A DNA stretch of 62,707 nucleotides. Source: Patescibacteria group bacterium (GTDB taxonomy: Bacteria; Patescibacteriota; Patescibacteriia; Patescibacteriales; UBA12465). The notes under the pieces were generated by a model. It searched no databases, was not told the DNA's origin, and saw only the letters and a program-made list of their open reading frames with translations. Positions within the stretch are counted from its first letter, which is position 1; the number at the start of each line of letters is the position of its first letter. Positions 1-62,707 of this stretch are shown piece after piece. The position numbers and the translations under genes were made by a program. The stretch covers positions 1 to 62,707 of the forward strand of contig JAQUHX010000001.1 in assembly GCA_028681575.1 (NCBI GenBank), given 5' to 3'.

Positions 1-1082
1 CGCTCATTAAAGAGAACACAACCACTGTCTACATTAACAATTCCATTGCAAGATTTTAAATCTATTTGCCCTTTTAATTGATAGTTAATTATTGCCTCCC
101 TAAGATATATAGAAGAACCTAGATTGGTCCGATAAATTCGAACTTTTACCGGAGCGCCCGTGCTTAAGAGGTTTTGCGTATAAAAGAGAGCTTGATTATT
201 AGAAACTATTATCTCCTTATTCGGCGCACTCAAAAAATTACTAGAATCAAGGAGCCGCAACTCGGTTTCTTCCTCGTTCTCAGTAATTAAAACTACACGT
301 AAACCAGCAACATTTCCATTAGTTGTAATGGTATAAAGGCGATTTGATTTTAAGCTTAACTCTTGATAATAACCACCACCCGAACTCCAACCATCGGCAG
401 TATTTCCATTAATACTACTGCCAGCTGGATTATAAAGGAGGTTGCTGGCATGATCACTAATTGGATCAATATATTCAGTACAACCAGAAGACTCAGCCGA
501 ACACAAACCAACCATATTTCGCGGCGACGGTACTAAATTACCACTAAGCCCAAGTGTTCGTCCATAATCAACTAAACATTCATAATCATTTTCATCAACT
601 ATACATTGAGAACTGCCACAATCTTGATTTGAAACACAAATAACGCCAACATTTTCGCCTTGATCTATCTTCCCATCGCCATTAGAATCACAACGCTTAA
701 CTGGGGTTTGCAACCATTTACCATCACGATAGAAGCAAGTATTGGTTCCCGGGTTCTTGAAATAGCTAGTCGCCCCATTTTCATAAGCCCAGGCATCACA
801 ACCAACTTCATTAGTTTGGCAAAGGGGGCTGCTCACTTGATCCTTATAAGAATCAGGCAGCAAGCGGCGGAAAACTTCAGTCCAACTAGAGACACCAAGC
901 TGATTTTGAATAAGCCCTAAACGAGTACAGCCAGTCGCCGCCTGATTACATTGTTTAGCAGAATCAAAGACAGCATAAATAGCTTGATGACTGGGAACAA
1001 CAAGACAACCAGGAGAACCCGGCGTACAAGTAGAAACCCAACTATCATCCTTTACTTGCTGATTATAAGTAAAGCCAAAAAA
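1..1082 (-). CDS. Continuation of the giant protein: 360 codons open to the window edge, 3' partial, no start codon of its own
   Basis: The same frame as the 4994 ATG is open from 1082 down to position 3; all codons were checked. It contains 16 more Cys codons, another C-x4-VGC copy (LCQTNEVGCDAW, 798..818) and a Ca-loop-like CDSNGDGKIDQGE (654..692). No ATG/GTG/TTG lies near its 5' end, so it is not an independent gene. Confidence 0.6.
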
Positions 1083-1201
1083 ATTAGAATTATTATAAGT
1101 TTGCACTAGAAGCTCACAACCAACCGCAGAGTCTTGACAAAGTTCACTAAATTGCCGTAGGTAATGAAAAGCTCCAGACCGATCAGAGTACTGTGAACAG
1201 C
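1055..1201 (-). other. Frame-disrupted junction inside the giant gene; about 20 codons readable only in the +1 frame
   Basis: The frame with codon low coordinates of 2 mod 3 is open over 1055..1201. It encodes FCQDSAVGCELLVQTYNNSNF, a canonical copy of the repeat (Cys codons at 1136..1138 and 1115..1117). The main frame has stops here at 1113, 1092, 1089 and 1083. Coding-strand T4 lies at 1138..1141 and T6 at 1077..1082, where the frame must change. Confidence 0.6.
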
Positions 1202-4200
1202 CTAAATTATAATTAGGACCCCGATAAACATCGTTAATATCATAAGAACAAACATCGGGAATAAGACTTGACCCTTTAATTAAATAATAACGATCAGAAA
1301 CCTCACTAACTACCAAATTATCAAAGAGCACGCCTCCTGTGGTCTCGACCTGAAGGCGCTCTGAATCGGGCCGATGATTAAGGGAATCTAAATTTAATTC
1401 ATAAGCCTGCCAACCGCCACTTAATTTGAGCTCACCACTTGTATTAGTTGGGGTAACTCCAAAAACTGAAGTCTCCCCGTCTGTGTTTATAAAGGAAAAG
1501 GTAAGGCTTGCATTAGCAGTTAAAGGCTTGGCTAAAAACTTCAAAGTATAAGCGGCTCCTTCTGTCGCATAAGAATCAGCGCTAGCATAGGCCGTGCCGC
1601 TAACTGATAAAGACTGCCCCTCTTCAAAGATTGAATCATTATTAGAAGTGCCGCCATTGAACCTAGTTACATTCTCAAAATCATAAGTCTCTAGTACCCG
1701 CGAAGCATTCCCCTTCTTGCCATTATATTCACGGCAACCAACACTATTTACTCCACACAGCTTGCCCTCCTGAGGAATCGCTTTATAAACACAAGCTTTT
1801 TGTTGCCCATCCCAAAGTCCACCATTTTTACAAACCTGGCAAGCCTTAGAAAAGTCATCCCAACTTCGATTGGCACCGACGCACTCAGCTTCCTTTAAAG
1901 TAGAATCATAATTTTTAGTATTTAGGCGATAAGAGTTACAATTTTCTGAACAAGTCACTGTTTCTGAAATAAGATGATAAGTAATCCGCCCCTCTTTACT
2001 ATAAAATTCTCGGCAATCAGGGTTATATCGAGGATCAGAGACCGGCAAATTATAAATTTCCTTATTACATTTAGTGGCTGATTCGGGATTAATTATATAA
2101 GGACGGCCATCAGGATTCTGCCGCAGTGAAAGAACAAGAAGCTGAGAATTATTCCAAGAATAAAAATCACCACAAGAAGCTTCTTGCGGTTTAACGCACT
2201 GTTTAAGTTCCGAGTAATATTCAACTCCTTCGCCCCCTTGTTCCACTTTATCTAAATTAGTAAAACTCGCACACCCAGCATCGGAAGCAGCACAAGTGCT
2301 AGTGTTATCAGGAATAATATTGTCAGCACTCGCTGAAAAAAGGTTCGATTCTTTAGCGATATAAACATCATAACCAACACACTGCGAATCGCAATAATCA
2401 AGCTCGTTAGCCTTAGCAGCTACTTTAAAGTTATCGTCTGTTGCCGAATAAAACTCACAACCAACCTCTTCAGGACTGCACTTACGTGCATAATCAAAAC
2501 AGACTGACGGAGCATCGTCTTTGTAAGAGAAATTGCCGCTAGCCGGGGAGGTGTAACAAATAGATTCTAAATAATCAGGCAGGAATTTTTGATAGACCGG
2601 GTACTTGCCGTAATAACTAAAAGCCGTATCCTGGCCATTAGGGGTTAACTTTAAATTACGAACTAAAAATTTAACATCAGAACCATAACCCACTAGGTAG
2701 AAGTTAAGAGATGCTGTTGTTTCTAAAGCCAGTGATAAATGAGACCACTCAGAACTACTTGTTTCTGCTTGTTTGACTGGAGAGCCAAAAGACAAAACTA
2801 CCTTATTGCCAGAAACTATTTTTACGTCAGCTGAAAGTGTATAAGACCAACCTTTTATCGCGATCATGTTTTTAGGCAAAACACTATTTATCTCATCTGA
2901 ATAAAGCATCGCCCCGTCACCACCGCTAACCGCTAAAGCTTTGCCATTATCATTTACAATCTCTCCAGAGACATTCGCGCCCTTAAGTGGCCAATTCCAA
3001 TTATTAATATTATTAGTATCGCCCACTTGATTTAAAGCTAAACCGCCATCCATTACGTAATTAACTTCTGTCCAGCCGGGCTTGCCGCGTAAAAATTGAG
3101 TACACCCCTCATCATTAGCCTCACAAGCAGGGGCACGATTATTCAAAAATAGAGACACTTGAGTGTTCCAGGTAAAAGAGCCATTGCTAGGATTATAAGT
3201 CCCCTGGGGGTAGTATTGACGGCAACCAACATTATTAACATCACAAGTACTATAATCTAAAGTATTTTCTAAGAAAGAAAAAGATTTATTATCGGTAGTA
3301 TTGCTAAAAGTTTGGCAAGTATTAAAAACGGGTTGGCAGGTATCAGTATTAAAACGCCAAGTCCGTCTTTCTTCATTGCAATAACCATAAAGTTCACAAG
3401 AGCCATCCGCCTTCTCTTTAATGCAAGTTTGACTATCAGCACAATAATCAGTTGCCCGAGAAATTATTAATGACGACTCTCCTTCAACTTCTGGACTGAC
3501 ATAACTACTAATAATCTGACTCCCAACTCCCTCTTTGCCGCAATAGTTAAGAGGGGCTTTTAGAACCCAATCTGGATCAACCTTTCCTTGACACCAAGAA
3601 ATATCGCGCTGATTGAAGTCAGAAGAAAACTGAGAATAGTTATCAGAAGAATCAAAACAAGAAATTAAATCTTGAAAAGTCGCTTTAATATTTTCTTGAG
3701 CAACGTAATTAAAGGCCTCTTCCCAAGAAACTGGAACAATACGATATTTTCGTAAAATAGAAACACTGCGAGTATTGTAAGCGCTTTCAGATTTAGGGTC
3801 GCCGCTGATTTGCCAGTCGCCATGAAGATATTCCTGCTCTAAAGCCTGGCCAACAGTTAACTTATCGGCAATCGCTTGAGAAAATTTATCATCGATAACG
3901 CAGTTGTTTGGCCCTGGATTATCCAAATCCGGACAAGCAACTAATTCTCCTAAAATACTGTAATCACCACGAATATCAAAACGAGGCTTAACAACACTGG
4001 CCAACTTTTCGCTGACAATCGTTTCTCCATACTGAACTAGTGATTCAAAGCCACTGTTTTTTAAATCATCAAAACGAGTAGCGTCTAAAGGCTGGCTGGT
4101 ACTCTTGCCCTTATTAATTTCTCGCATTACTCTTTGAAAAGACTCATAAGCTAATTGGTTCAAAAAAATATTGGCGGCGTCAACAATGGCGTCACCTGAA

Positions 4201-4994
4201 TCTTTAAGCAGCAACTGAAGTTGAGTTTCTTTGGCGTTTTCTAAATCTTCTTTAGATTGACCCGGGGTGCCTTTCAGTTTACCAGCAATATCTCTTACAT
4301 CAAGCCAACCCTGAGTAATTATATTTTTATCTTTCTCGTCTTCCTCGGCCTTAGTACTTGTCTCTTTGACGCGACCAAAAAGCTCCTTTGCAACCGAGAT
4401 TTCACCACCACCCGGATCAAAAGAAGCTTTAATTCCCTTTAAATAATCACCGCTCTCCATCGCTGCTAATTTCTCATAAGCCGAACTGTAGTTGTTAACC
4501 AGATTGCTTAAAGTACAATCTGGTTTACTTGGATAAAGGGTTTGCACTAAACCTAAACCTATCTTGGCTTGGATATTAGGAGAAGGAGGTTGACAAAGAT
4601 CCGCTTGCCAAGCTTCGCCTAGCCCATCAATAAAATCACCAGCAGCAGCATCGCCAATATTTTTCCAATATTCACTAAAATCTTCAACGACATAAGTAGG
4701 CTTTTGCCCCTCGCCAGCACTAGCGACATACTTCGCCGTATCAATTGCAATCCGATTCAAACTATTACGCAGCGTTGTGCTAACTAAATTTGACCCAAAA
4801 GTCTTCCAAATTTTAGCCAATTTTTCTTTAATGGTAAGATTAGCTTCGCTTAAAATCGCTGGAATAGAAGAAACTTCCGCTGTTGGAATAACCGCTTGCG
4901 CTGGTTGCAGATTTAAATTAAATATCAAAAAAGCCGACAAAAGCAGTAAAAGCAAAGGGCCGGCTTTAAACTTTAAAAACGATGGGTTTTTCAT
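1113..4994 (-). CDS. Giant exported cysteine-repeat surface protein, N-terminal 1293 codons up to an in-frame TGA; absent from the supplied ORF track
   Basis: Minus-strand ATG at 4994..4992 gives MKNPSFLKFKAGPLLLLLLSAFLIFNLNLQPAQA/VIPTAE, a signal peptide with an AxA site. I checked every codon (low coordinate divisible by 3) from 4992 down to 1116 and found no stop. First stop is TGA at 1113..1115. By hand count there are 39 Cys codons, 37 of them after about codon 360. Recurring motif C-x4-VGC (3222..3245, 2457..2480, 1734..1757) alternates with Cys-free blocks that read like beta-sandwich modules. Confidence 0.85.
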
Positions 4995-5036: not shown

Positions 5037-5714
5037 TTAAAAAATCTCAGCGCTATTATCAACAGTTTCCTCATTCAAGTCCTGGTTAAGCGGAAGTGAT
5101 AATTCTGGAAACTGAGCTGCTAAAATATCTTTATACATCACCATTAAATCTTCATCACTAAGAAGGTCGACTTGAGTAACATCTGCTCCGCCCTGAAGTA
5201 AAATTTGACGCATCGTTTGAGCATCACCCTCGCCAGACAAGGCTAAAATTAACAACTCTTCATCAATAAAACTGGCCGGAGAGGCGCTGGGAATTTCCAT
5301 ATCATCAATAACGATTTCCTCAGGATTAGCAGCTAATAAGCCGCAATTTGATCCTTCGGCACACAAAGGATCAGTACCACTCCTCACTTCATCAAAATCG
5401 GATATTCCATCACCATCAGTATCTGTTAAATAAGGTGAAGTTTTATAGACATTTATTTCATCCCGATCAATCAGCCCGTCACCATCGGTATCTTTACTTT
5501 TTTCTAATAAGGCCGCCGCTTCTCTTTCCCTAGCTGCCTGTTCGGCCGCCGCCACCTCCGCTTTATCTGGCTTAAAAGGACCACTTAAACGAGAGTTAAA
5601 TTGCCAAATCCAAACTCCCAAAATAACAAGCGCTAAAAAAGACAAACCAAAAACCGCATTTTTTCGACGACGCGGCAAAGAAGAAAGAGGATTCGAAGAA
5701 GGGATTTCAGCCAT
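5037..5714 (-). CDS. Membrane-anchored protein with two thrombospondin-type-3-like calcium-binding repeats
   Basis: N-terminal basic tail plus a TM helix (AVFGLSFLALVILGVWIW). Two DxDxDGxxDxxE motifs: DTDGDGLIDRDE and DTDGDGISDFDE. Stop is 43 nt upstream of the giant gene ATG on the same strand. Confidence 0.6.
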   Translation of the reverse strand: MAEIPSSNPLSSLPRRRKNAVFGLSFLALVILGVWIWQFNSRLSGPFKPDKAEVAAAEQAAREREAAALLEKSKDTDGDGLIDRDEINVYKTSPYLTDTDGDGISDFDEVRSGTDPLCAEGSNCGLLAANPEEIVIDDMEIPSASPASFIDEELLILALSGEGDAQTMRQILLQGGADVTQVDLLSDEDLMVMYKDILAAQFPELSLPLNQDLNEETVDNSAEIF

Positions 5715-5741
5715 AATTTATTATTAGTATTTATTTTTTGA

Positions 5742-6584
5742 TTATAACACAAAAGAACGCGCCGTCGCAAACAATTTTTGCCAATCATCAAGGCTTAAAT
5801 CTTCTGCCCTAACTTGCGAAGTCAAATTAGCAGCCGCTAATAACTCAGCTGCCAATTTTAAATCAATGCCTAAACCAGCTGCTAAATTATTTTTAAGCAT
5901 TTTTCTTTTTGCACTAAAACCAACTCGAGCTAAGCGAAAAAAGGCTTTTTTTTCAGAATCATTATAAACATCACTTCGATGAGAATGGAGTTTAAGCCTA
6001 ACCAGAGCGCTATCAACTTTTGGCTCCGGCCAAAAATTACCAGCTTTAACCAAACGAACAATTTCTGGCTGACTATAAAATTGCACCGATAAGGCCAAAA
6101 GATTCATTTTTCCAGGCCTAGCAAGCAAGCGCTCAGCAACTTCTTTCTGTAAAAGCAAAACCATTCTCTCTGGAGCATTCTTTTGTTCCAAAAAAGTTCT
6201 TAAAAAAATTGAACTAATGTTATAAGGTAAATTAGCCACAATTTTATAGGCGGCTGGCAAATCGCCAGGATTAAAACGTAAAATATCCTGATTAAGCAAG
6301 GTGACATTTTCTACTGCCTGCGAATCAAGCGCAACTCGCAAAAAAGCGGATATTTTATCATCAAGCTCAACTGTAATTACTTGACCCGCATCTTTCGCTA
6401 AACGAGCGGTTAAAAAACCAAGCCCCGGACCAACCTCTAAAACTGTATCTTTTTTATCTAGCTCTGCCGCCGCAATAATATCATCATAAACGCTCTCAGT
6501 AATTAAAAAATTTTGCCCCTTAGATCGACTAGGGTGCAAATCATAAATCCGGCATAGTTCTTTCATCCTCTGAGCTAAAGTCAT
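5742..6584 (-). CDS. rsmA: 16S rRNA (adenine1518/1519-N6)-dimethyltransferase
   Basis: GQNFL motif, SAM-binding VLEVGPGLGFLT, and NLPYNISS, typical of KsgA/RsmA. Confidence 0.9.
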   Translation of the reverse strand: MTLAQRMKELCRIYDLHPSRSKGQNFLITESVYDDIIAAAELDKKDTVLEVGPGLGFLTARLAKDAGQVITVELDDKISAFLRVALDSQAVENVTLLNQDILRFNPGDLPAAYKIVANLPYNISSIFLRTFLEQKNAPERMVLLLQKEVAERLLARPGKMNLLALSVQFYSQPEIVRLVKAGNFWPEPKVDSALVRLKLHSHRSDVYNDSEKKAFFRLARVGFSAKRKMLKNNLAAGLGIDLKLAAELLAAANLTSQVRAEDLSLDDWQKLFATARSFVL

Positions 6585-10003: not shown

Positions 10004-10822
10004 ATGGCGAAAAATCTCGGAAACATGAGCCTTGAAGAGCGCGCTAAATATTTGGCTCTAAAGGAGAAATACAAAAAGAAACTAACCCCTTGGTACAAAC
10101 GCTGGTGGGGAGTCGTGTTAATTATTATCTCTGGATTAATTTTAACCGCCCTGGTTGCCGCTGGTTTTTATATCTCCAATCTGACCACTAAAATTATAAA
10201 TGGCCAAGAAAACGAACTTTTGCTTAATTATTCAGAAAACAGCTTTCTTAACACAATTAATCCTCAAGAAACAGATTGGAATCGAATTATTTACGGACCA
10301 GGGACAAATTACTTTTTAGGAGTTGACGATGCGCTAATAACAATTGTTGAATTTAGTGATTTTGCCTGTCCTTATTGCGCTAAAGCTCACAAAATTGCTG
10401 AACAAATAAATACTCGTTATCCAGACAAGGTAAAATTCATCTACCGCGACCTCCCTTTACATGAAAACTCAATTGATCTCGCCTTAGCAGCGCGTTGTGC
10501 GGGCGAACAAGGAAGATTTTGGGAAATGCATGACCAGATATTCGCCAACCAAAAGGCTCTACCGCTAGACTCTCTAGAGCTTAAACCAGTTATTTACGAT
10601 TTAGCCGGCACATTAGGAATTAATGCTGCTTTATTTGATAAATGTTTTTCCGAAAAAAAATACACCAGCAATATCGCTGTTGACCTAGAAGACGCAATCG
10701 CTCTAAAAACGGAAGGTACCCCAACCTGGTTTATCAACGGTCGAGTAATGACTGGTTACTTAGAAGACAGCGCCTTTATTACAATGATTGATAGCTATTT
10801 AGAAACTTTAGGCAAGGAATAA
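10004..10822 (+). CDS. Membrane-anchored DsbA-family thiol:disulfide oxidoreductase
   Basis: N-terminal TM helix (WWGVVLIIISGLILTALVAAGFYI), then a thioredoxin fold with the CxxC motif FACPYCAKAH. Stop is 3 nt before porC. Confidence 0.8.
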   Translation: MAKNLGNMSLEERAKYLALKEKYKKKLTPWYKRWWGVVLIIISGLILTALVAAGFYISNLTTKIINGQENELLLNYSENSFLNTINPQETDWNRIIYGPGTNYFLGVDDALITIVEFSDFACPYCAKAHKIAEQINTRYPDKVKFIYRDLPLHENSIDLALAARCAGEQGRFWEMHDQIFANQKALPLDSLELKPVIYDLAGTLGINAALFDKCFSEKKYTSNIAVDLEDAIALKTEGTPTWFINGRVMTGYLEDSAFITMIDSYLETLGKE

Positions 10823-10825
10823 TTT

Positions 10826-11410
10826 ATGTCTTTTTCTACCACTCAAGTCCGAGTTCATGGTCGCGGCGGTCAGGGCGTAGTAACCGCTACTGAGTTAATT
10901 GCCTTAGCGGCTACTTTTGATGGCCAAGAAGCACAGGCCTTCCCTTTTTTTGGCGTAGAACGAAGTGGCGCCCCAGTGGTTTCCTTTGCCCGCATATCAA
11001 AACAACCAATTAAAACTCGGGAACAAATTTATCGCCCTGATTATTTAATTATTCAAGATGAAACTTTAATCGGCGATAAAAATATCTTAGCGGGCGCTCA
11101 TAACCAAACTAAAATTATTATTAACTCCACTTTATCCCCGGCTGAAATTAAAAAACAATTAAAGCCTTTATCCCCAAAAGATAAAATCTACGAAAAAAAT
11201 ATTATTTGTACTCCGGCAACAGTTGTCGCCTTAGAGGTAATTGGAAAAAATTTAGTAAATACCGTGATTCTGTCAGCCCTAGCAAAAAATAGCTCTTTGT
11301 TTTCTTTAGATTCACTAAAAAAAGCGGTCCGTCTAAAGCTAGCTTCAAAGGGAAAAGCAATTGTAGAAAAAAACTTAAAAGCGATTAAATTAGTTTATGA
11401 AAAATACTAA
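10826..11410 (+). CDS. porC: Pyruvate/2-oxoacid:ferredoxin oxidoreductase gamma subunit
   Basis: VRVHGRGGQGVVTATELIALAA motif, 194 aa, overlaps porD by 14 nt. Confidence 0.9.
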   Translation: MSFSTTQVRVHGRGGQGVVTATELIALAATFDGQEAQAFPFFGVERSGAPVVSFARISKQPIKTREQIYRPDYLIIQDETLIGDKNILAGAHNQTKIIINSTLSPAEIKKQLKPLSPKDKIYEKNIICTPATVVALEVIGKNLVNTVILSALAKNSSLFSLDSLKKAVRLKLASKGKAIVEKNLKAIKLVYEKY

Positions 11411-11693
11411 AAAAAATAACTCTCAATTGCGACAACCAATCAGCCAAGCGACGAGTTCACTGAAAAATAAAACCGGCTCTTGGAGAATTTATCGGCCAGT
11501 GGTTGATTATGATATTTGTATTGGCTGTTCTTTGTGCGCAAAATTTTGTCCTGATGCCTGTATTAAAATGCGCTCTCAAAAAAAATATCAGGGGAAAATA
11601 AAACCAATAATCGACCTAGATTATTGCAAGGGCTGTGGTTTATGCGCTAAAGAATGCCCTGTAAAGGCAATAAAAATGCTTGAAGATTTTTAA
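11397..11693 (+). CDS. porD: Pyruvate:ferredoxin oxidoreductase delta subunit (2x[4Fe-4S])
   Basis: Two ferredoxin-type cysteine motifs: CIGCSLCAKFCP and CKGCGLCAKECP. Confidence 0.9.
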   Translation: MKNTKKNNSQLRQPISQATSSLKNKTGSWRIYRPVVDYDICIGCSLCAKFCPDACIKMRSQKKYQGKIKPIIDLDYCKGCGLCAKECPVKAIKMLEDF

Positions 11694-12831
11694 TATGAGT
11701 TCTACAAAAAAACAATTTTTAGAAGGAGCAGCGGCCATTGCCGAAGTGATTAATCGGATAAAACCAGAGGTGGTTAGTGCTTATCCAATTACCCCCCAGA
11801 CTCACATTGTTGAAGATTTAGCACAACGAGTCGCTGACAACAAATCTGCTTATGAATATGTTCGTGCTGAGAGTGAATTTGCCGCCGCTTCAATTGTTTT
11901 AGGAGCAAGCGCCACTGGGGCCAGAACTTATAGCGCCACCTCTTCCCAAGGACTACTTCTTATGGCTGAGGTATTATACAACATCTCAGGAATGCGCTTA
12001 CCAGTAGTAATGACTGTTGCCAACCGAGCGATTTCTGGACCAATTAATATTTGGAATGACCATTCCGATATTATGGCTTTGCGTGATTGTGGCGCAATTT
12101 TATTATTTGCCGAAACGCACCAGGAAGCAATCGATCAGCATGTGCTCGCTTATAAAATTGCTGAATTTTTAAATTTACCTGTTCTTGTTAATGTTGACGG
12201 CTTTATTATGACCCATGCTTTTAGTGGTTGCTATTTGCCAGATTCAAAAACAATTAAAAAATTCCTTCCTAAACGAAATTTAGTTAAAGGAGAATATCTT
12301 AATCCACAATTCCCAGTTACTATGGGTGTTTTTGGTGGCCCAGATTCTTATTATTTATTCCGTCAGTTACTCCAGAAAGATTTGTTAAACTCTTTAAAAA
12401 ATATTAAAAAAGAATACGCAGACTGGAAAAAGATATTCCCTACGCCTAAAGAATCAGGCACTCTAACGAGCAATGGCTTAATTGAATATTACGGCTCTAA
12501 GAAACCAGCGCTAGTCATTGTAGCTATGGGAACCATCTGTGGCACAATTAAAAAAGTAATTGATGATTATCCAAAAAAGATTGGTTTAATTAAAATTCGT
12601 TGCTACCGTCCTTTTCCAAGTGTCGAAATCAAACGAGCCCTTAAAAAAACAAAAAAGGTTCTGGTATTAGAAAAATGTTATGGCCTCGGCCATGAATCAC
12701 CATTAAAATTAGATTTAAGCGCTGCTCTTTGGGGTGAAAAAATTGATTTGCGGTCTGAAGTCTTAGGCTTGGGCGGGCAAGATGTGACCGAAAAAAAAAT
12801 TACGAACTTAATTAAACATTATGAAAAATAA
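11680..12831 (+). CDS. porA: Pyruvate:ferredoxin oxidoreductase alpha subunit
   Basis: 383 aa. N-terminal AYPITPQT motif typical of POR alpha. Overlaps porD by 14 nt. Confidence 0.9.
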   Translation: MKIFNMSSTKKQFLEGAAAIAEVINRIKPEVVSAYPITPQTHIVEDLAQRVADNKSAYEYVRAESEFAAASIVLGASATGARTYSATSSQGLLLMAEVLYNISGMRLPVVMTVANRAISGPINIWNDHSDIMALRDCGAILLFAETHQEAIDQHVLAYKIAEFLNLPVLVNVDGFIMTHAFSGCYLPDSKTIKKFLPKRNLVKGEYLNPQFPVTMGVFGGPDSYYLFRQLLQKDLLNSLKNIKKEYADWKKIFPTPKESGTLTSNGLIEYYGSKKPALVIVAMGTICGTIKKVIDDYPKKIGLIKIRCYRPFPSVEIKRALKKTKKVLVLEKCYGLGHESPLKLDLSAALWGEKIDLRSEVLGLGGQDVTEKKITNLIKHYEK

Positions 12832-13807
12832 ATTAACACTTTTTTTGTTATCCCTTATTTTCTTAAGTGTTGCCACCGCTAACGTTGCTTCTGGCTCTGA
12901 AAAAAATTTTACCTTTACCCCTCAGGTAGGAATTCCTGATTCTAATTTTCAAACTGACAAACAAATCCCCATTGGAGAAGAAAAAAACGGGACGACGAGC
13001 AGCACCCTCTTAGCTGATTATATCACCTCTTTTTATACTTACGCCCTTAATATTTTAGGGGTCTTAGCAGTTTTAATTTTAATGGCCGGAGGAGTGCAAT
13101 GGATTATCTCCGGCGGTAACACTAAAAAAATTGAAAGTGCTAAAAAAATGATTGGTGGTTCTATTTTTGGCGGAGCTTTACTTATTGGTTCTTACCTCAT
13201 TTTAAATACTATCAATCCCGACTTAACTAAACTTCCCGCTATCGAAATGCCCATGATTGATAAAATCGAAACTGGCTGCTGCGATGAGGCTTTAGACGAT
13301 GGAACCGCCAAAATCACCAACACAAAAAACTGTGCTGAAGGAAAGTTGCTCCCTAATCATGCTATTGGGGCGAGCGGTAAGTGCGAAGGAAAAATGTGCT
13401 GCATTCAATATACATATCAAAAAGATGCAGTTTTATCTTGCACCATGAAATTAGCAAGTAACTGTGGTCCTAAAAAGGATTCGGTAAATGATAGCGTTGT
13501 TTATGAAGTCGGGTTTATGGATTGTGAAAACTTAGCAATTTGCAAAGAGGCAAGCTATTTAAATGACGACTGCAAAGGAATAAAGGATGGAGAAAGACCT
13601 AAGGGGCCTTATGGGAGCAATATCTGGTGTTATGACGAAAAAATCCACTCAGGATATAAAGCTCAAATAGGGGAGCGTTGCGGCAACAACGAAGGATCTC
13701 TTTGTTTTGATATTAAGTTTACAAAATGTAATCGAGATATGGGTGGAAGACGTTGTGAAACTGGTAATTGCTGCGAAGTCCACTCTGACGGAACAATGAA
13801 AAAATAA
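12821..13807 (+). CDS. Exported VirB2/TrbC-pilin-like protein with an 18-Cys C-terminal domain, inserted between porA and porB
   Basis: Signal peptide, then two hydrophobic helices split by the basic loop SGGNTKKIESAKKMIGG (core about 13007..13225), then about 190 aa holding 18 Cys. Overlaps porA by 11 nt. Paralogous to 14679..15788. Confidence 0.7.
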   Translation: MKNKLTLFLLSLIFLSVATANVASGSEKNFTFTPQVGIPDSNFQTDKQIPIGEEKNGTTSSTLLADYITSFYTYALNILGVLAVLILMAGGVQWIISGGNTKKIESAKKMIGGSIFGGALLIGSYLILNTINPDLTKLPAIEMPMIDKIETGCCDEALDDGTAKITNTKNCAEGKLLPNHAIGASGKCEGKMCCIQYTYQKDAVLSCTMKLASNCGPKKDSVNDSVVYEVGFMDCENLAICKEASYLNDDCKGIKDGERPKGPYGSNIWCYDEKIHSGYKAQIGERCGNNEGSLCFDIKFTKCNRDMGGRRCETGNCCEVHSDGTMKK

Positions 13808-13809
13808 TT

Positions 13810-14682
13810 ATGAAGCAATACCAATCTACAAAAATATGTCCCGGTCATAATGCTTGTGCGGGCTGCGGTGAATTAACTGCTGTTCAAGCGGCTTTTCGCG
13901 GCTTACCAGAAAAAGTAATTATCACCAATGCTACCGGCTGCATTGAAGTAACAACCACTTCATACCCAGAAAGTTCTTGGGGGGTGCCCTGGATTCACTC
14001 CTTGTTTGAAAATGCCGCTGCTCTAGCTTCTGGAGTTTTAGCGGCTCTAAAAGTTAAGGGCGATACAAAAACAAGAGTGGTGGCAATCGGCGGCGATGGG
14101 GCAACTTATGATATTGGTTTAGGCCTTATTTCGGGAATGTGGGAAAGAGGTGAGCGTATTCTTTATATTTGTTTTGATACTGAAGCTTACTCAAATACTG
14201 GCATTCAAGCCTCAGGAGCAACCCCCTACGGGGCAGCGACAACAACTACTCCTAGTGGGAAAGTCACTTCTGGAGCACACACCCACAAAAAAGATTTATT
14301 AGGAATTGCTTTAGCTCACGGCTTAAAATATGTCGCTCAAAGCACAGCCGGCTTCCCGGATGATATTACCAACAAGGTGAAAAAGGCTCTAACGGTTGAT
14401 GGTCCTAGTTATCTGCAAATTTTATCACCTTGCATTCCAGGTTGGAAAATAAAAAATGACGAAGCTGGCGAACTTGGAAAACTAGCCGTTAAAACTGGTC
14501 TCTACCCCTTACTAGAATACATTAATGGAAAACTAAGTGCTTCCAGTATTAACGCTAAATTTACTCCGGCGCCAGTTCAAGATTATTTAAACAAGCAAGG
14601 ACGTTTTAAAAATTTAAAAACAGCTGACCTGGAAATAATTAAAAAAATTGCTGAACAAAATGTTTCTAAATACCGATTATGA
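13810..14682 (+). CDS. porB: Pyruvate:ferredoxin oxidoreductase beta subunit (TPP-binding)
   Basis: CPGHNACAGCG Fe-S motif and GDGATYDIG TPP motif, 290 aa. Confidence 0.9.
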   Translation: MKQYQSTKICPGHNACAGCGELTAVQAAFRGLPEKVIITNATGCIEVTTTSYPESSWGVPWIHSLFENAAALASGVLAALKVKGDTKTRVVAIGGDGATYDIGLGLISGMWERGERILYICFDTEAYSNTGIQASGATPYGAATTTTPSGKVTSGAHTHKKDLLGIALAHGLKYVAQSTAGFPDDITNKVKKALTVDGPSYLQILSPCIPGWKIKNDEAGELGKLAVKTGLYPLLEYINGKLSASSINAKFTPAPVQDYLNKQGRFKNLKTADLEIIKKIAEQNVSKYRL

Positions 14683-15788
14683 AAAAAATATTTTACACTT
14701 TTGTTTTTGTAATATTAGGAATAATTTTTTTGATAGTGCCGGCAAAGGCGGAAGATGTTTGCGCGTGGACTGTCGGGGCTACGGGGCAAATTGCGCACTA
14801 TCTTTACTGCCCTACTAATTATGAAGAGAAGCAAGGCGCTTGTGATGGAGAACATCCTGGTCAAGGCTACATTTGCTGTTGTACAAAAATTACAATAGAA
14901 CCAACAAAAGAGCCTAAATTCACAAACCCTTCAGACACTTGGCAGGTAAAAATTCCCGGTTTAGAAAGATTGAGTGAAGTTAATTGTGCAGACGGCGTTT
15001 GTAAAATTCCTTGGATTTCTGAATACTCTTTTGGCCTTTACAGTTTCGCCCTCAATATTGCTAGCATTTTAGCGGTTTTAATTTTAATGGCCGCCGGAGT
15101 AATTTGGATTATTTCCGGTGGCGACCAAGGAAAAATTACTAACGCCAAAAAAATGATTGCCGGCAGTGTTACTGGCCTAGTCTTGTTAGTCGGGGCCAAT
15201 TTAATTTTAAGTTTCATTAATCCTGATTTAATAAAATTAAAAAGTTTAGAAATTGCCTATATTGAACCCTTGGAAAATCTCCCCGATGCTGATGTTGGTC
15301 AATTAGGAGAAGTCGCCCAAGCAGCCAACCCCTACCAGAAAGCTTGCGAAGCTAGCAGAAAAGGAGATTATTCCGCATGCCTTGCTTTAGGAGAAACTCA
15401 ACCAGCCGGACTGGTAACAACAAAAGCTATTGGCGGCTCAACTGTTTTTGTTGAACAATCCGTTCTTAATGCTTATCTATCAGCAATAGAGTGCGTCAAA
15501 GAAAAAAATAATGGTAAATTTCCTTTTGGAATTAATAACGCCTGGCGATCTCCTAAAAGACAAGTAGAGATAAGAATTAGATATGAAAACGAAGGAAGAG
15601 CTAAAGACGCAGCGCTCCCTTGTTGTTCAAATCATGGGTCCGGACAAGCAATTGATATCAATTATTTTGAAGGGAAAATGAGCTGGTCTTATAACGAGAC
15701 GAGTCATTTAAGAGAATGCATGAACGCTAACGGCCTCTACGCTAAGATTAGCAAAGAGCCTTGGCATTGGTCACCAACCGGAAACTAA
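14679..15788 (+). CDS. Exported Cys-rich / VirB2-TrbC-pilin-like / M15 (VanY-type) zinc peptidase fusion protein
   Basis: Signal peptide (PAKA/ED). 8 Cys in the first about 85 mature residues. Pilin-like two-helix core (about 15012..15230) nearly identical in pattern to 12821..13807. C-terminal AWRSPKRQ, SNHGSGQAIDI and EPWHW motifs of D-Ala-D-Ala carboxypeptidase/VanY peptidases. ATGA overlap with porB. Confidence 0.75.
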   Translation: MKKIFYTFVFVILGIIFLIVPAKAEDVCAWTVGATGQIAHYLYCPTNYEEKQGACDGEHPGQGYICCCTKITIEPTKEPKFTNPSDTWQVKIPGLERLSEVNCADGVCKIPWISEYSFGLYSFALNIASILAVLILMAAGVIWIISGGDQGKITNAKKMIAGSVTGLVLLVGANLILSFINPDLIKLKSLEIAYIEPLENLPDADVGQLGEVAQAANPYQKACEASRKGDYSACLALGETQPAGLVTTKAIGGSTVFVEQSVLNAYLSAIECVKEKNNGKFPFGINNAWRSPKRQVEIRIRYENEGRAKDAALPCCSNHGSGQAIDINYFEGKMSWSYNETSHLRECMNANGLYAKISKEPWHWSPTGN

Positions 15789-21842: not shown

Positions 21843-23315
21843 TTAAAAATAATCAGCTAGTTTTTCCCAAAGTGTCCGTCCGGAAAATTCGACCTTAATT
21901 TTTTCAATTACCAACTGTCCTAAATCTTCAGGAGCCAAACCCGGAACGGAGATCATAAAGCTATATTTACCATTTTCTCGATAAGCTGCCTTGGTATTAA
22001 AAGTCGCACTTGCTTCTTTTAAACCACCATCTTTGACAAGCGGCTGATTGTAATCAGCAATAATATATTTTGTTTCATCATTAATAGTAAAGTAGCGACC
22101 CAAAATATCAAAATCAGGATTAAAGAAGGTTTCAGGGCTAAGAGAAAAAACGCCACCGGTTTCCAAAATAACGTCATCTTTTTCTAGAACAATTTGTTTA
22201 AGGCCAAGGGCTTTATGAGTAAATTCATAACGCTGATAAGGCTCGGCCAACAAAAATTCTTGGCTACCAAAAGAAATTTTCTGCCGACTGGCTGGATTAG
22301 CAGTTGTTAAGCTAATTAAATTACGATCAGTCCAAAAAATTAAAGGATGGGTTGTTGATTGCACTGGATAAACTCGACCAACAAAATTTAAAGCTCCCGG
22401 AGCATCACTAATTTCTTTAATAATTAAATCGGAGCTCCCTTTTATTTCCAGCTTCAAGGTTTCCTTTGTTGTTAAGGGTGGGCAAGAAAGAGTGGCTTCT
22501 TTAGTATAAGACTTGCCCTCGCCTTCACCGCCAGAGTTATCTTCAATTTTATCCTGACAAATTATTTGACTGCCCTTATAAACAGTCAAATAAACGGGGT
22601 CAGCTCGTTTATCTAAATTTAAATCAATTAATTCAAAAGAGAAAAATAATTTTTTATTAGCCTCAGCACTAAAATAAAATTGATGCGCCCCTTTTAAAGG
22701 AACAGTCCAAGGAACAAAATTTTCTAAAGGACCAGGAGTTCTTTTTTGTAAGATATCAAGCGCCGGCGGATTGTATAAAGCCAAACAAGAATTAAGCTTT
22801 CCGTCTGAGCAAATTTTTTCTGGGTTCTTATTTGCCACTTCCATAAATTCACTCACTGAAGAAAAAATTGGATCTTTCTGATACAGCGACACCTCTTTTT
22901 CCTGAAGTCTCTGCCAGTCGCTTAAATTATCTAAAGTTTTATTCTCTAAAGATTTAGTCTGGTAGCGCCAAACCAAATTATCAACTAAAACCCCAACTTC
23001 AATTACTGGCGTCGCACTAGTTAACTCATTTTTATAAGTAACAGTGACTTTGGCCTCAGAGAATGTTCGAGGCGTAAAAACAGAAAAATAAACAGGATCG
23101 CCAATCATAATGGCTGGAGAAGATTTTTCTTGACTAACCCGTTCAGCCGGAGTCAGCTGCCCAATAAAACCACGCCCTCCGAAGGGTTGGCTTAAATTTC
23201 GATATTCAAGTTCATAGCTCGCTCGTCCACCAGGAACAATTTTTGCAAACAAAATAAAGATGGCGAAAAAAAGCCAAAAAAACACTAAAACACCTTGGCG
23301 TCGGGATAATAACAT
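21843..23315 (-). CDS. Membrane-anchored extracytoplasmic protein of unknown function
   Basis: One N-terminal TM helix (VLVFFWLFFAIFILFAKIV), then about 455 aa with no motif I recognise. Lies between rpoC and murJ. Confidence 0.6.
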   Translation of the reverse strand: MLLSRRQGVLVFFWLFFAIFILFAKIVPGGRASYELEYRNLSQPFGGRGFIGQLTPAERVSQEKSSPAIMIGDPVYFSVFTPRTFSEAKVTVTYKNELTSATPVIEVGVLVDNLVWRYQTKSLENKTLDNLSDWQRLQEKEVSLYQKDPIFSSVSEFMEVANKNPEKICSDGKLNSCLALYNPPALDILQKRTPGPLENFVPWTVPLKGAHQFYFSAEANKKLFFSFELIDLNLDKRADPVYLTVYKGSQIICQDKIEDNSGGEGEGKSYTKEATLSCPPLTTKETLKLEIKGSSDLIIKEISDAPGALNFVGRVYPVQSTTHPLIFWTDRNLISLTTANPASRQKISFGSQEFLLAEPYQRYEFTHKALGLKQIVLEKDDVILETGGVFSLSPETFFNPDFDILGRYFTINDETKYIIADYNQPLVKDGGLKEASATFNTKAAYRENGKYSFMISVPGLAPEDLGQLVIEKIKVEFSGRTLWEKLADYF

Positions 23316-40803: not shown

Positions 40804-40832
40804 AGAACCACTGTCGTACTTCTAGATTATTT

Positions 40833-40905
40833 GGGCCTTTAGCTCAGTTGGTAGAGCACCTGCTTTGCAAGCAGGGGGTCAAGGGTTCGAGTCCCTTAAG
40901 GTCCA
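40833..40905 (+). tRNA. tRNA-Ala (UGC)
   Basis: Cloverleaf folded by hand. Anticodon loop TTTGCAA. G3:U70 alanine identity pair present. No encoded CCA. Confidence 0.9.
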
Positions 40906-40910
40906 CCCTA

Positions 40911-46955: not shown

Positions 46956-47029
46956 GGGCAATTAGCTCAGCTGGTTAGAGCGCAACACTGATAATGTTGA
47001 GGTCGGAGGTTCGAGTCCTCCATTGCCCA
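46956..47029 (+). tRNA. tRNA-Ile (GAU)
   Basis: Cloverleaf folded by hand. Anticodon loop CTGATAA. Confidence 0.9.
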
Positions 47030-47125
47030 CTTTAATTGGTTTTTAAAAAGAAAAATCTTAGCATCCGGTTTAAAGTAAAAGCGACTGAATAAATTAAGCG
47101 TAATCAAACTCTGTTTTGATTGAAT

Positions 47126-47198
47126 CGCGGGGTAGAGCAGTTGGCAGCTCGCCAGGCCCATAACCTGGAGGTCGTCGGTTCGAATCCGACCCCCGCAA
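47126..47198 (+). tRNA. Initiator-type tRNA-Met (CAU)
   Basis: C1xA72 mismatch and A11:U24 pair. Anticodon stem CCAGG/CCTGG with loop CCCATAA. Confidence 0.85.
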
Positions 47199-47204
47199 CA
47201 AGTC

Positions 47205-47276
47205 GCCTCGGTAGCTCAGTGGTAGAGCAAAGGACTGAAAATCCTTGTGTCGTCAGTTCGATTCTGACCCGGGGCA
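47205..47276 (+). tRNA. tRNA-Phe (GAA)
   Basis: Cloverleaf folded by hand. Anticodon loop CTGAAAA. Confidence 0.9.
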
Positions 47277-47279
47277 CAT

Positions 47280-47305
47280 AAAAAACTCGGATTCCGAGTT
47301 TTTTT
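47280..47305 (+). terminator. Hairpin plus T-run between tRNA-Phe and tRNA-Pro
   Basis: AAAACTCGG-ATT-CCGAGTTTT followed by T7. Confidence 0.6.
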
Positions 47306-47310
47306 AGAAA

Positions 47311-47381
47311 CGGGGTGTCGTATACCGGTAGTACGCATGCTTTGGGAGCATGTTGACTGGGTTCAATTCCCAGCACCCCGA
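47311..47381 (+). tRNA. tRNA-Pro (UGG)
   Basis: Acceptor CGGGGTG/CACCCCG. Anticodon loop TTTGGGA with G37. Confidence 0.85.
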
Positions 47382-47390
47382 CATAGAACT

Positions 47391-58643: not shown

Positions 58644-58716
58644 GCGCTCGTAGCTCAATGGATAGAGCACTTGGCTTCGGACCAAGGGGTTGTGGGTTCG
58701 AATCCTGCCGGGCGCA
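58644..58716 (+). tRNA. tRNA-Arg (UCG)
   Basis: Cloverleaf folded by hand. Anticodon loop CTTCGGA. Confidence 0.85.
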
Positions 58717-58727
58717 CTATTTTTTTG

Positions 58728-58756
58728 TTGACAACTCTAGCCTCTTCCTTTATTCT
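58728..58756 (+). promoter_or_regulatory. Promoter for tRNA-Met/tRNA-Lys (TTGACA-17-TATTCT)
   Basis: -35 at 58728..58733 and -10 at 58751..58756. Confidence 0.45.
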
Positions 58757-58805
58757 AAGTTAAAGAAAATTAAAATTTTTTATTTTTTAGGTTATTTTTT
58801 CACGA

Positions 58806-58879
58806 GGCTGGGTAGCTCAGCTGGTTAGAGCGTAGCACTCATAACGCTAAGGTCGAGAGTTCAATTCTCTCCCCAGCCA
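58806..58879 (+). tRNA. tRNA with CAU anticodon (elongator Met or lysidine-modified Ile2; not distinguishable by eye)
   Basis: Acceptor GGCTGGG/CCCAGCC is fully paired, so it is not an initiator. Anticodon loop CTCATAA. A31/C39 mismatch at the base of the loop. Confidence 0.8.
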
Positions 58880-58892
58880 CTAAAAAATTTAA

Positions 58893-58968
58893 GCGCTGTT
58901 AGCTCAGCTGGTAGAGCAGCTCCCTCTTAAGGAGACGGTCGCAGGTTCGAATCCTGCACGGCGCACCA
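58893..58968 (+). tRNA. tRNA-Lys (CUU), with genomically encoded CCA
   Basis: Anticodon loop CTCTTAA. It is the only tRNA of the eight here that encodes a 3' CCA (58966..58968). Followed by a terminator hairpin ATAGGC...GCCTAT plus a T-run. Confidence 0.85.
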
Positions 58969-62606: not shown

Positions 62607-62707
62607 TTCTGGCGACGACCTACTTTCCCAGGGCTCCTGCCCAAGTATCATCGGCGCTGGAGGGCTTAACTTCTGAGTTCGGGAAGGGATCAGGTGTGAC
62701 CCCTCCG
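62607..62707 (-). rRNA. rrf: 5S ribosomal RNA (3' about 100 nt; 5' end beyond the window)
   Basis: The reverse complement reads ...CCTGATCCCTTCCCGAACTCAGAAGTTAAGCCCTCCAGCGCCGATGATACTTGGG...GGGAAAGTAGGTCGTCGCCAGA. This matches the conserved bacterial 5S core (CCGAACTCAGAAGTGAAAC...GCGCCGATGGTAGT). Confidence 0.9.

Follow-up and report, generated by a model that had tools for sequence, protein, structure and literature searches.

The window analysed here, 62,707 nucleotides at the start of contig JAQUHX010000001.1 from a Patescibacteria group bacterium (lineage UBA12465), opens inside a gene for a giant exported protein, a scaffold in which cysteine-rich connectors alternate with at least three to four jelly-roll modules of the CBM_4_9 type (CBM, carbohydrate-binding module). 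We read this protein, at roughly even odds (probability about 0.5), as the extracellular, glycan-binding contact arm of a chromosomal, relaxase-less type IV secretion system (T4SS) of Falkowbacteria, in which the conserved N-terminal part would be the stalk and the C-terminal end would carry the specificity. The family, its architecture and its linkage to T4SS genes appear to be undescribed in the literature searched, where we found no account of either the family or a Falkowbacteria T4SS adhesin.

Machine re-translation of the minus strand gives a single stop-free frame of 1,664 codons, running from the ATG at 4994 to base 3; the other two minus-strand frames carry stops throughout positions 1–4994. 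A preliminary description of this DNA, made from the letters alone, had read the strand as coding through the first 5 kb from this same ATG, as one giant exported protein of a reduced genome. That reading stands: no in-frame stop was found on re-translation, the frame is continuous from a Sec-type signal onwards and the source is a small-genome Patescibacterium. A public protein (P0001) matches the whole of the window query at 99% identity, and residues 801–1664 at 100%; the break suspected near 1082–1116 is thus neither a stop nor a frameshift. P0001 is 2,570 residues long, which puts the N-terminal 65% of the protein inside the window; the C terminus does lie outside, as had been supposed, and the earlier estimate of about 1,670 codons becomes 1,664. 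The open reading frame (ORF) list made for this DNA has no minus-strand entry below 5037 because ORFs running off the end of the source go unlisted, which is an artefact of the tool and not of biology. An 86-residue, TTG-initiated ORF on the opposite strand inside the gene (660–920, plus) is very likely spurious, since it is the minus-strand frame that is conserved.

The cysteine-free blocks B1, B2 and B3 are predicted jelly rolls of the CBM4/9/16/22 type, a point on which structure prediction, Foldseek, a profile search of the PDB and Pfam scans of orthologues agree. We built two AlphaFold2 models, each resting on an alignment of 29 sequences (mean predicted local distance difference test (pLDDT) score 52.5 and 61.7), in which residues 350–480, 650–790, 931–1080, 1100–1230, 1430–1480 and 1520–1630 are confident. 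Searching the PDB with Foldseek, the first model matched CBM16 structures (2zew and 3oea, also 8xmz; E 1.5e-7, about 1e-7; template-modelling (TM) score 0.60–0.64) and the second matched CBM22 (4xuo, TM 0.64, root mean square deviation (RMSD) 3.7 Å); a receptor-binding domain of CDTb (9mui RBD1) was matched at TM 0.62. The predicted fold thus superposes on solved CBM4/16/22 structures at TM 0.60–0.64 in model segments with pLDDT 80–93. A 77-sequence profile run against PDB sequences independently found CBM22 4xup for block B2 (E 3e-4), with weaker matches to CBM4 and GH26 modules. In Pfam scans, CBM_4_9 (PF02018, gathering threshold 25.9 bits) is exceeded in the orthologous blocks of three homologues, P0045 at 33.8 bits (B1), P0064 at 29.6 bits (B2) and P0074 at 26.7 bits; the window protein and P0001 score below threshold. 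The preliminary description had already proposed CBM-type β-sandwich modules alternating with cysteine motifs, which these searches bear out; the blocks it put at about 150 residues are present, with actual lengths of 181, 161 and 143.

Beyond these modules the searches yielded little. The whole-family profile matched no PDB sequence and PHROGs gave no match for the giant. Foldseek against viral models returned only generic multi-β-sandwich tail proteins at TM of about 0.1, and the extended matches with iota toxin, Vip3 and phage tail proteins (TM about 0.1–0.2) come down to the shared jelly roll only. NCBIfam gave a weak GTA_spike_fiber match at residues 1115–1200 (E 0.004). For the N-terminal region, Pfam scans of 67 orthologues over residues 34–480 produced only scattered noise (SseC in 4 of 67, E at least 0.015), and profiles of 67–77 orthologues for the first 445 residues found nothing in the PDB below E 1. 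Conservation is distributed unevenly along the chain: the connectors are best conserved (mean pairwise identity 0.52–0.63), and the cysteine-free blocks, the variable region V and the C terminus are the most variable (0.30–0.45). Features of the gene and its neighbourhood are collected in Table 1.

Table 1 Features of the giant gene and its neighbours. Positions refer to the window unless L001, a near-identical contig, is named; loci are counted among 85 compared; pLDDT values are from the AlphaFold2 models.
Feature	Position	Strand	Remarks
Giant gene, N-terminal 1,664 codons	3..4994	−	Stop-free translation and P0001; C-terminal 906 residues past the window start
Sec-type signal peptide, residues 1–34 (MKNPSFLKFKAGPLLLLLLSAFLIFNLNLQPAQA / VIP)	4893..4994	−	Basic n-region, hydrophobic core and A-x-A cleavage site, read from sequence
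Cys-poor predicted helical region, residues 35–345	3960..4892	−	Cys134 and Cys160 only; AlphaFold2 helices, pLDDT <50
Conserved α/β domain, residues 346–445 (confident to about 480)	3660..3959	−	2 Cys; pLDDT 79–89; mean pairwise identity 0.58
Connector K1, residues 446–631	3102..3659	−	13 invariant Cys; hairpins CDVNNVGC, CEANDEGC; signature YCADxQTC…GSCExYGYC
Cys-free jelly roll B1, residues 632–812, CBM4/9/16-like	2559..3101	−	pLDDT 80–93; Foldseek CBM16
Connector K2, residues 813–1087	1734..2558	−	20 conserved Cys; CSPEEVGC, CAASDAGC, CGVNSVGC; residues about 931–1080 at pLDDT about 80–85
Cys-free jelly roll B2, residues 1088–1248, CBM22/CBM_4_9-like	1251..1733	−	pLDDT 77–93; 4xup and 4xuo matches
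Connector K3, residues 1249–1505	480..1250	−	18 conserved Cys; CQDSAVGC, CTPGSPGC, CNQAATGC, CQTNEVGC, CSAESSGC
DxNxDGxID…E loop (CDSNGDGKIDQGE), residues 1435–1447	654..692	−	Read from sequence; resembles a TSP3/EF-hand-type Ca2+ site
Cys-free β-sandwich B3, residues 1506–1648	51..479	−	pLDDT about 74–89; mean pairwise identity 0.35, the most variable block in the window
K4, B4, K5, variable region V, K6 and C-terminal domain	Beyond window		C-terminal domain with PKD-like WGDG…H.FYHYY motif
TSP3 partner, 225-residue single-pass membrane protein	5037..5714	−	Bacterial TSP3 (Ca-binding) repeats, TSP3_bac E 2e-11; transmembrane residues 21–39
DsbA-like thiol-disulfide oxidoreductase, membrane-anchored	10004..10822	+	Pfam Thioredoxin_4, DSBA; transmembrane residues 30–48 in the L001 orthologue
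VirB2-like T4SS pilin-family protein, Cys-rich C-terminal extension	12821..13807	+	T4SS_pilin 24.6 bits, below the cut-off of 26.6
Second T4SS pilin-family protein, Cys-rich tail, fused to VanY/M15 peptidase-like domain	14679..15788	+	T4SS_pilin 32.5 bits, above the cut-off
D1	L001, directly downstream of giant		194 residues, C-terminal transmembrane segment; 51/85 loci
D2	L001:18493-21456, two genes downstream of giant		987 residues, about nine N-terminal hydrophobic segments, long charged tail; 54/85 loci
D3	L001		350 residues; 46/85 loci
D4	L001		555 residues; 27/85 loci
PrgI/VirB3	L001, downstream		24/85 loci
TraC/TrsD-like protein	L001, downstream		21/85 loci
VirB4 ATPase	L001, downstream		19/85 loci
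KsgA, LeuRS, DsbA			72/85, 59/85 and 58/85 loci

The cysteine framework is the most rigid property of the protein. A hand count of 57 cysteines in the window part was exact (the full-length protein has 86, or 3.3%), and in an alignment of 30 sequences at 39–79% identity all 57 are kept in at least 29 homologues; over the full length, 79 of 86 are kept in at least 27. A short hairpin motif recurs among them. Judged by 5,000 shuffles of the full-length protein, C-x5-G-C is far beyond chance (10 copies against 0.2 expected, shuffle maximum 3), and the looser C-x6-C occurs 12 times against 2.8 expected (shuffle maximum 11). The clear copies quoted earlier are present, with true coordinates (3213–3248, 2448–2483, 1725–1760 and 789–824) that enclose the ranges first given. 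To call them an array of repeats was an overstatement. Aligning each of 13 segments of the protein against the others with hhalign found no significant similarity among blocks or connectors (best E about 0.008), and a tandem repeat protein was rejected on these grounds; only the hairpin recurs, and the giant is therefore a mosaic. Curated cysteine-repeat models (Myxococcus Cys-rich repeat, furin-like, EGF-like) gave no Pfam or NCBIfam match at E up to 1. The calcium-loop-like element CDSNGDGKIDQGE was placed correctly to the base. Within it, three residues are invariant (C1435, D1436, E1447) and I1443 is almost so, and P0001 has N at the fifth position; TSP3_bac of Pfam does not match this loop, unlike the partner protein encoded upstream.

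The signal peptide accounts for the one hydrophobic segment of the giant (residues 6–24), and A34 at its cleavage site is invariant or nearly so across homologues. Recovery of the C terminus through P0001 allowed a check for anchors and sorting signals: the sequence ends in …SWSENGNCGL, there is no LPxT[GAS] motif anywhere, and no C-terminal hydrophobic tail or membrane anchor. Pfam and NCBIfam scans found no SLH or other recognised wall-anchoring domain, nor any match to polymer-adhesin, glucan-binding or thioester domains.

The family is large and confined. Among 5.8 billion proteins we obtained 288 matches, nearly all of 2,500–2,800 residues and all unnamed or ‘hypothetical’; those with an organism name are nearly all Patescibacteria or Candidatus Falkowbacteria. 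A HMMER scan of 1.84 billion cluster representatives gave 1,384 clusters (50% identity) at E ≤ 0.001, of which 1,073 reach E ≤ 1e-30, and the best 150 of the 1,384 are mostly 2.0–3.0 thousand residues long. Scanning one genome per GTDB species for the pattern YCADxQTC…GSCExYGYC retrieved 239 genomes; where a name is given, it is almost always Falkowbacteria or Patescibacteria. Orthologues and their surroundings could thus be compared as the preliminary description had advised, in 85 loci, each of which holds the giant once. The protein belongs to no named family, also as first stated: neither Pfam nor NCBIfam has a significant match to the window protein or a family for the giant as a whole, Pfam has none for the full-length protein, and no confident match ties it to a known adhesin or S-layer family. 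Many contigs carrying the locus are labelled ‘uncultured Gammaproteobacteria’, ‘Bacillota bacterium’ or ‘Saccharimonadales’ (L007, L008, L010, L013, L017, L068 and others); from the shared locus and gene order, these labels are probably wrong.

Comparison with L001, which also supplies the genes downstream of the giant beyond the window, raised the idea of a hypervariable adhesin under positive selection, because the giant has more non-synonymous than synonymous changes (10 and 4), the reverse of four flanking genes taken together (1 and 7; Fisher p = 0.024). The idea was rejected for the window part. In more distant pairs than this one, the nine closer pairs among the loci, the whole-gene ratio of non-synonymous to synonymous rates (dN/dS) is 0.04–0.18 where computable, only slightly above LeuRS and KsgA. 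Split by segment, four of five close pairs mostly give dN/dS of 0.01–0.07, and the fifth reaches 0.2. B3 is elevated, at 0.11–0.13 in four of the five and 0.05 in the other, and so is the distal end, with about 0.1 in most pairs for the C-terminal domain and up to 0.45 for the V region (P0001 residues 2046–2340, beyond the window), whose length varies from 259 to 452 residues. What the window holds is thus a scaffold under constraint, and the variability is greatest beyond it. Between L025 and L080, a close pair of loci, divergence is strong throughout the C-terminal third but not in the N-terminal part, a pattern that suggests recombinational exchange of the distal end. An artefact in place of a gene (chance open frame, pseudogene or chimeric assembly) had absence from the ORF list as its sole support, and is excluded by 1,664 stop-free codons, 1,384 homologous clusters, dN/dS well below 1 and the same gene in the same context in 85 loci.

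For synteny, ORFs were called in the 85 loci and searched with the neighbour proteins of the window and L001. The TSP3 gene lies directly upstream of the giant in 75 of the 85, tens of bases apart or overlapping in nearly all; in the window 42 nt separate its end from the ATG of the giant, a gap free of terminator-like sites. The terminal part of ksgA, just upstream of the TSP3 gene, contains a sigma-70-like site (TTGCGA-18 nt-TATAAT, extended TG; 5741–5770, minus) that could drive a TSP3–giant transcript; promoter-type sites are fewer than in shuffled sequence, and the site was therefore given no weight.

Downstream, the same-strand series of L001 runs through D1, D2 and further genes to VirB3- and VirB4-type proteins, the latter being found in about half of the loci that have 10 kb of downstream sequence. 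D2 is, by sequence, a divergent TrbL/VirB6. PF04610 (TrbL/VirB6) matched weakly in 3 of 41 D2 orthologues. A D2 profile search then found relatives in many Patescibacteria groups, several of them carrying PF04610 or named ‘type IV secretion system protein’, and D2 homologues rescanned against PF04610 aligned over model positions 9–194 of 215, one of them above threshold (P0380, 27.2 bits). These relatives extend to Magasanik-, Uhr-, Komeili-, Veblen- and Buchananbacteria, so D2 is far more widespread than the giant. D2 had no match among PDB sequences, and D1, D3 and D4 matched no Pfam family in 62 orthologues. The giant thus lies on the same strand as, and adjacent to, VirB6/VirB3/VirB4-type genes; this holds as context, the downstream genes being outside the window.

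On the other side of the giant, the DsbA gene lies about 5 kb upstream in 58 of the 85 loci, and DsbA is a plausible oxidase for both the giant and the Cys-rich pilins encoded beyond it. The first pilin-family gene is present in 49 loci, and its L001 orthologue has 18 cysteines and three hydrophobic segments; in the second protein, the VanY match is weak in the window and clear in orthologues. Both pilin genes alternate with pyruvate:ferredoxin oxidoreductase genes (10826–11410, 11680–12831 and 13810–14682), whose ends they overlap, an arrangement seen in about 49 related loci.

From these data we assemble the following picture. The giant is exported through Sec, and its cysteines would form about 40 disulfides, put in place by the neighbouring membrane-anchored DsbA. 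Since it lacks an anchor, its attachment to the cell surface probably falls to the TSP3 protein encoded directly upstream, which would be co-transcribed, is membrane-anchored and has calcium-binding repeats. The conserved N-terminal two-thirds, which fall in the window, would form a stalk, and the fast-evolving C-terminal region outside it would carry target specificity. It is the running on of the operon into D1, the VirB6-like D2 and, in about half of the loci, VirB3/TrsD/VirB4 that leads us to see the giant as the contact arm of a T4SS. The preliminary description had suggested a surface adhesin or host-contact structure, a role that we likewise infer; it is strengthened by the TSP3 and TrbL/VirB6-like operon and by the variable C terminus, and tempered by purifying selection. 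More tentative is the proposition, to which we give about one chance in three, that the Patescibacteria T4SS has in the giant its ‘missing adhesin’, a DsbA-folded, calcium-docked fibre with a stalk held by TSP3 and VirB6 and an exchangeable, host-selecting tip.

Several observations weigh against the contact-arm reading. The link to secretion genes is loose in places: among loci with sufficient downstream sequence, about half lack VirB3 and VirB4 within 10 kb, other genes stand between the giant and D1–D3 in a few loci (L002, L045 and L047), and LeuRS and KsgA are neighbours as constant as the T4SS-type genes. Since gene order is kept for unrelated genes too, adjacency is suggestive but weak as functional evidence. 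Strong purifying selection over the window part tempers the adhesin interpretation, that part being highly conserved, unlike typical host-specificity adhesins. Apart from the jelly rolls and two further segments, the AlphaFold2 models are poor (mean pLDDT 52–62), and the N-terminal 445 residues, to which no fold is assigned, could hold an unrecognised activity.

Some of the same observations would fit a structural envelope protein, a wall or S-layer scaffold whose CBM-like modules bind the cell’s own peptidoglycan or glycans and whose T4SS neighbourhood is inherited gene order. Selection is strong over most of the length (segments at 0.01–0.07 in four of five pairs, 0.04–0.18 overall), the gene is single-copy in a housekeeping chromosomal context, the unrelated LeuRS and KsgA are equally constant neighbours and about half of the loci have no adjacent VirB4. 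We nevertheless hold such a role to be unlikely, at perhaps one chance in five: the tight same-strand set of TSP3, giant, D1 and the VirB6-like gene survives rearrangements that took VirB3/VirB4 away, and the C-terminal region is hypervariable and apparently exchangeable. A cysteine content of 3.3% with no SLH-type or other wall-anchor domain is, moreover, atypical of S-layer proteins.

A secreted carbohydrate-active or wall-lytic enzyme, possibly a VirB1-like T4SS factor with an unrecognised catalytic domain in residues 35–445 or in V, is kept in play because the 445 N-terminal residues lack an assigned fold. Glycoside hydrolases typically bear modules of the CBM_4_9, CBM22 and CBM16 families, several polar residues of the N-terminal region are invariant (G96, Q97, D115 and others), and VirB1 homologues rarely adjoin virB4 in Patescibacteria (PMC12102498). 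Set against this, no hydrolase, lyase or transglycosylase family was matched even with profiles of 67–77 orthologues, and the neighbourhood already supplies a VanY/M15 peptidase in another protein, as part of a pilin fusion. For an enzyme, 2,570 residues and about 40 disulfides would also be unusual, and we rate this option clearly below the envelope protein. Less probable again, with very long odds against it, is a toxin-like or effector protein delivered to a host cell, such as a pore former resembling a binary-toxin B component or Vip3. The top Foldseek matches of the second model do include iota toxin Ib, CDTb and Vip3, but at TM 0.1–0.2 and RMSD 17–25 Å; only the CBM-like receptor-binding domain superposes (9mui RBD1, TM 0.62), no pore-forming or protease domain was detected in Pfam scans, and the Sec signal peptide argues against direct translocation by the T4SS.

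The contact-arm reading has precedents of two kinds. Patescibacteria T4SSs are chromosomal, of the MPF-FATA-like (monoderm) type and mostly without a relaxase, and a Saccharimonadia strain cannot grow epibiotically without their genes (PMC12102498); the 2025 survey that established this states that ‘No adhesins, such as PrgB, were detected’ (PMC12102498). Gram-positive T4SS operons typically encode large adhesins (PMC7726212, PMC8092201). The giant resembles PrgB-type and thioester-domain adhesins (PrgB of pCF10 and the pLS20 adhesin) in being large, Sec-exported and encoded on the same strand as VirB6/VirB3/VirB4-type genes (PMC7726212, PMC8092201, PMC12102498). Those adhesins are thought or shown to make the contact between cells on which the machine depends (PMC7726212, PMC8092201), a role that we infer for the giant. 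It differs from them in having no detectable sequence relationship and no polymer-adhesin, thioester or LPXTG features, in being about twice as long and Cys-rich with CBM-type modules, and in that its T4SS is chromosomal and, per the survey, mostly relaxase-less, unlike the conjugative operons of the PrgB type (PMC12102498).

The other precedent is from Peribacteria of the Candidate Phyla Radiation (CPR), in which large Cys-rich exported proteins were noted in 2016, ‘possibly for attachment’ (Anantharaman et al. 2016, PMC4736985); the general kind was therefore already known. Like the giant, these are very large proteins of small CPR genomes with signal peptides, a disulfide-forming protein alongside and a suspected role in attachment (PMC4736985). 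Unlike that set, the giant has 3.3% cysteine, occurs once per locus in 85 of 85, shows strong conservation and is linked to T4SS genes. Module by module, B1–B3 share the predicted jelly-roll fold with CBM_4_9, CBM16 and CBM22 modules of glycoside hydrolases, though the giant has no recognised catalytic domain attached. CDTb RBD1, iota Ib and phage tail fibre or minor tail proteins likewise carry this jelly roll along a long extracellular protein, as a module for recognising cell surfaces; here a single domain superposes and the overall architectures are unrelated (TM about 0.1). By sequence, then, the giant has no homology to known adhesins, yet in kind it would be a T4SS-linked surface protein or a CPR Cys-rich exoprotein.

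How ultra-small CPR/Patescibacteria cells recognise and attach to hosts is a central open question, for which the main links so far are to type IV pili and, on genetic evidence, to the T4SS genes of Saccharimonadia. The giant family supplies a concrete candidate adhesin for one large lineage, where the survey reported none (PMC12102498). Its gene takes up about 0.8% of a genome of roughly 1 Mb, and its 40 or so putative disulfides are conserved over more than 1,000 sequence clusters. The family also offers handles: the CBM modules, a variable tip from which hosts might be predicted, and the signature YCADxQTC…GSCExYGYC for retrieval from metagenomes. If the giant is indeed the missing adhesin, then across an entire candidate phylum a conjugation machine would have been repurposed for docking to hosts and for uptake or delivery. 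Should its place beside T4SS genes reflect no more than inherited gene order, the giant would still be an uncharacterised, lineage-defining envelope protein, of modest interest.

The rest of the window is ordinary chromosome. GC content is flat (0.36–0.41) and the remaining genes are housekeeping ones (LeuRS, KsgA, RecJ, LepA, MurJ, RpoB/C, FtsK, PolA, PNPase and IF-2), from which we take the giant gene to be native and chromosomal. A 490-residue ORF between murJ and rpoC (21843–23315, minus) has no Pfam match at E ≤ 1e-5. Two tRNA clusters, Ile-Met-Phe-Pro (46956–47382) and Arg-Met-Lys (58644–58968), lie on the plus strand, a lone tRNA-Ala occupies 40832–40908, and a 5S rRNA gene (62607–62707, minus) is cut by the window end.

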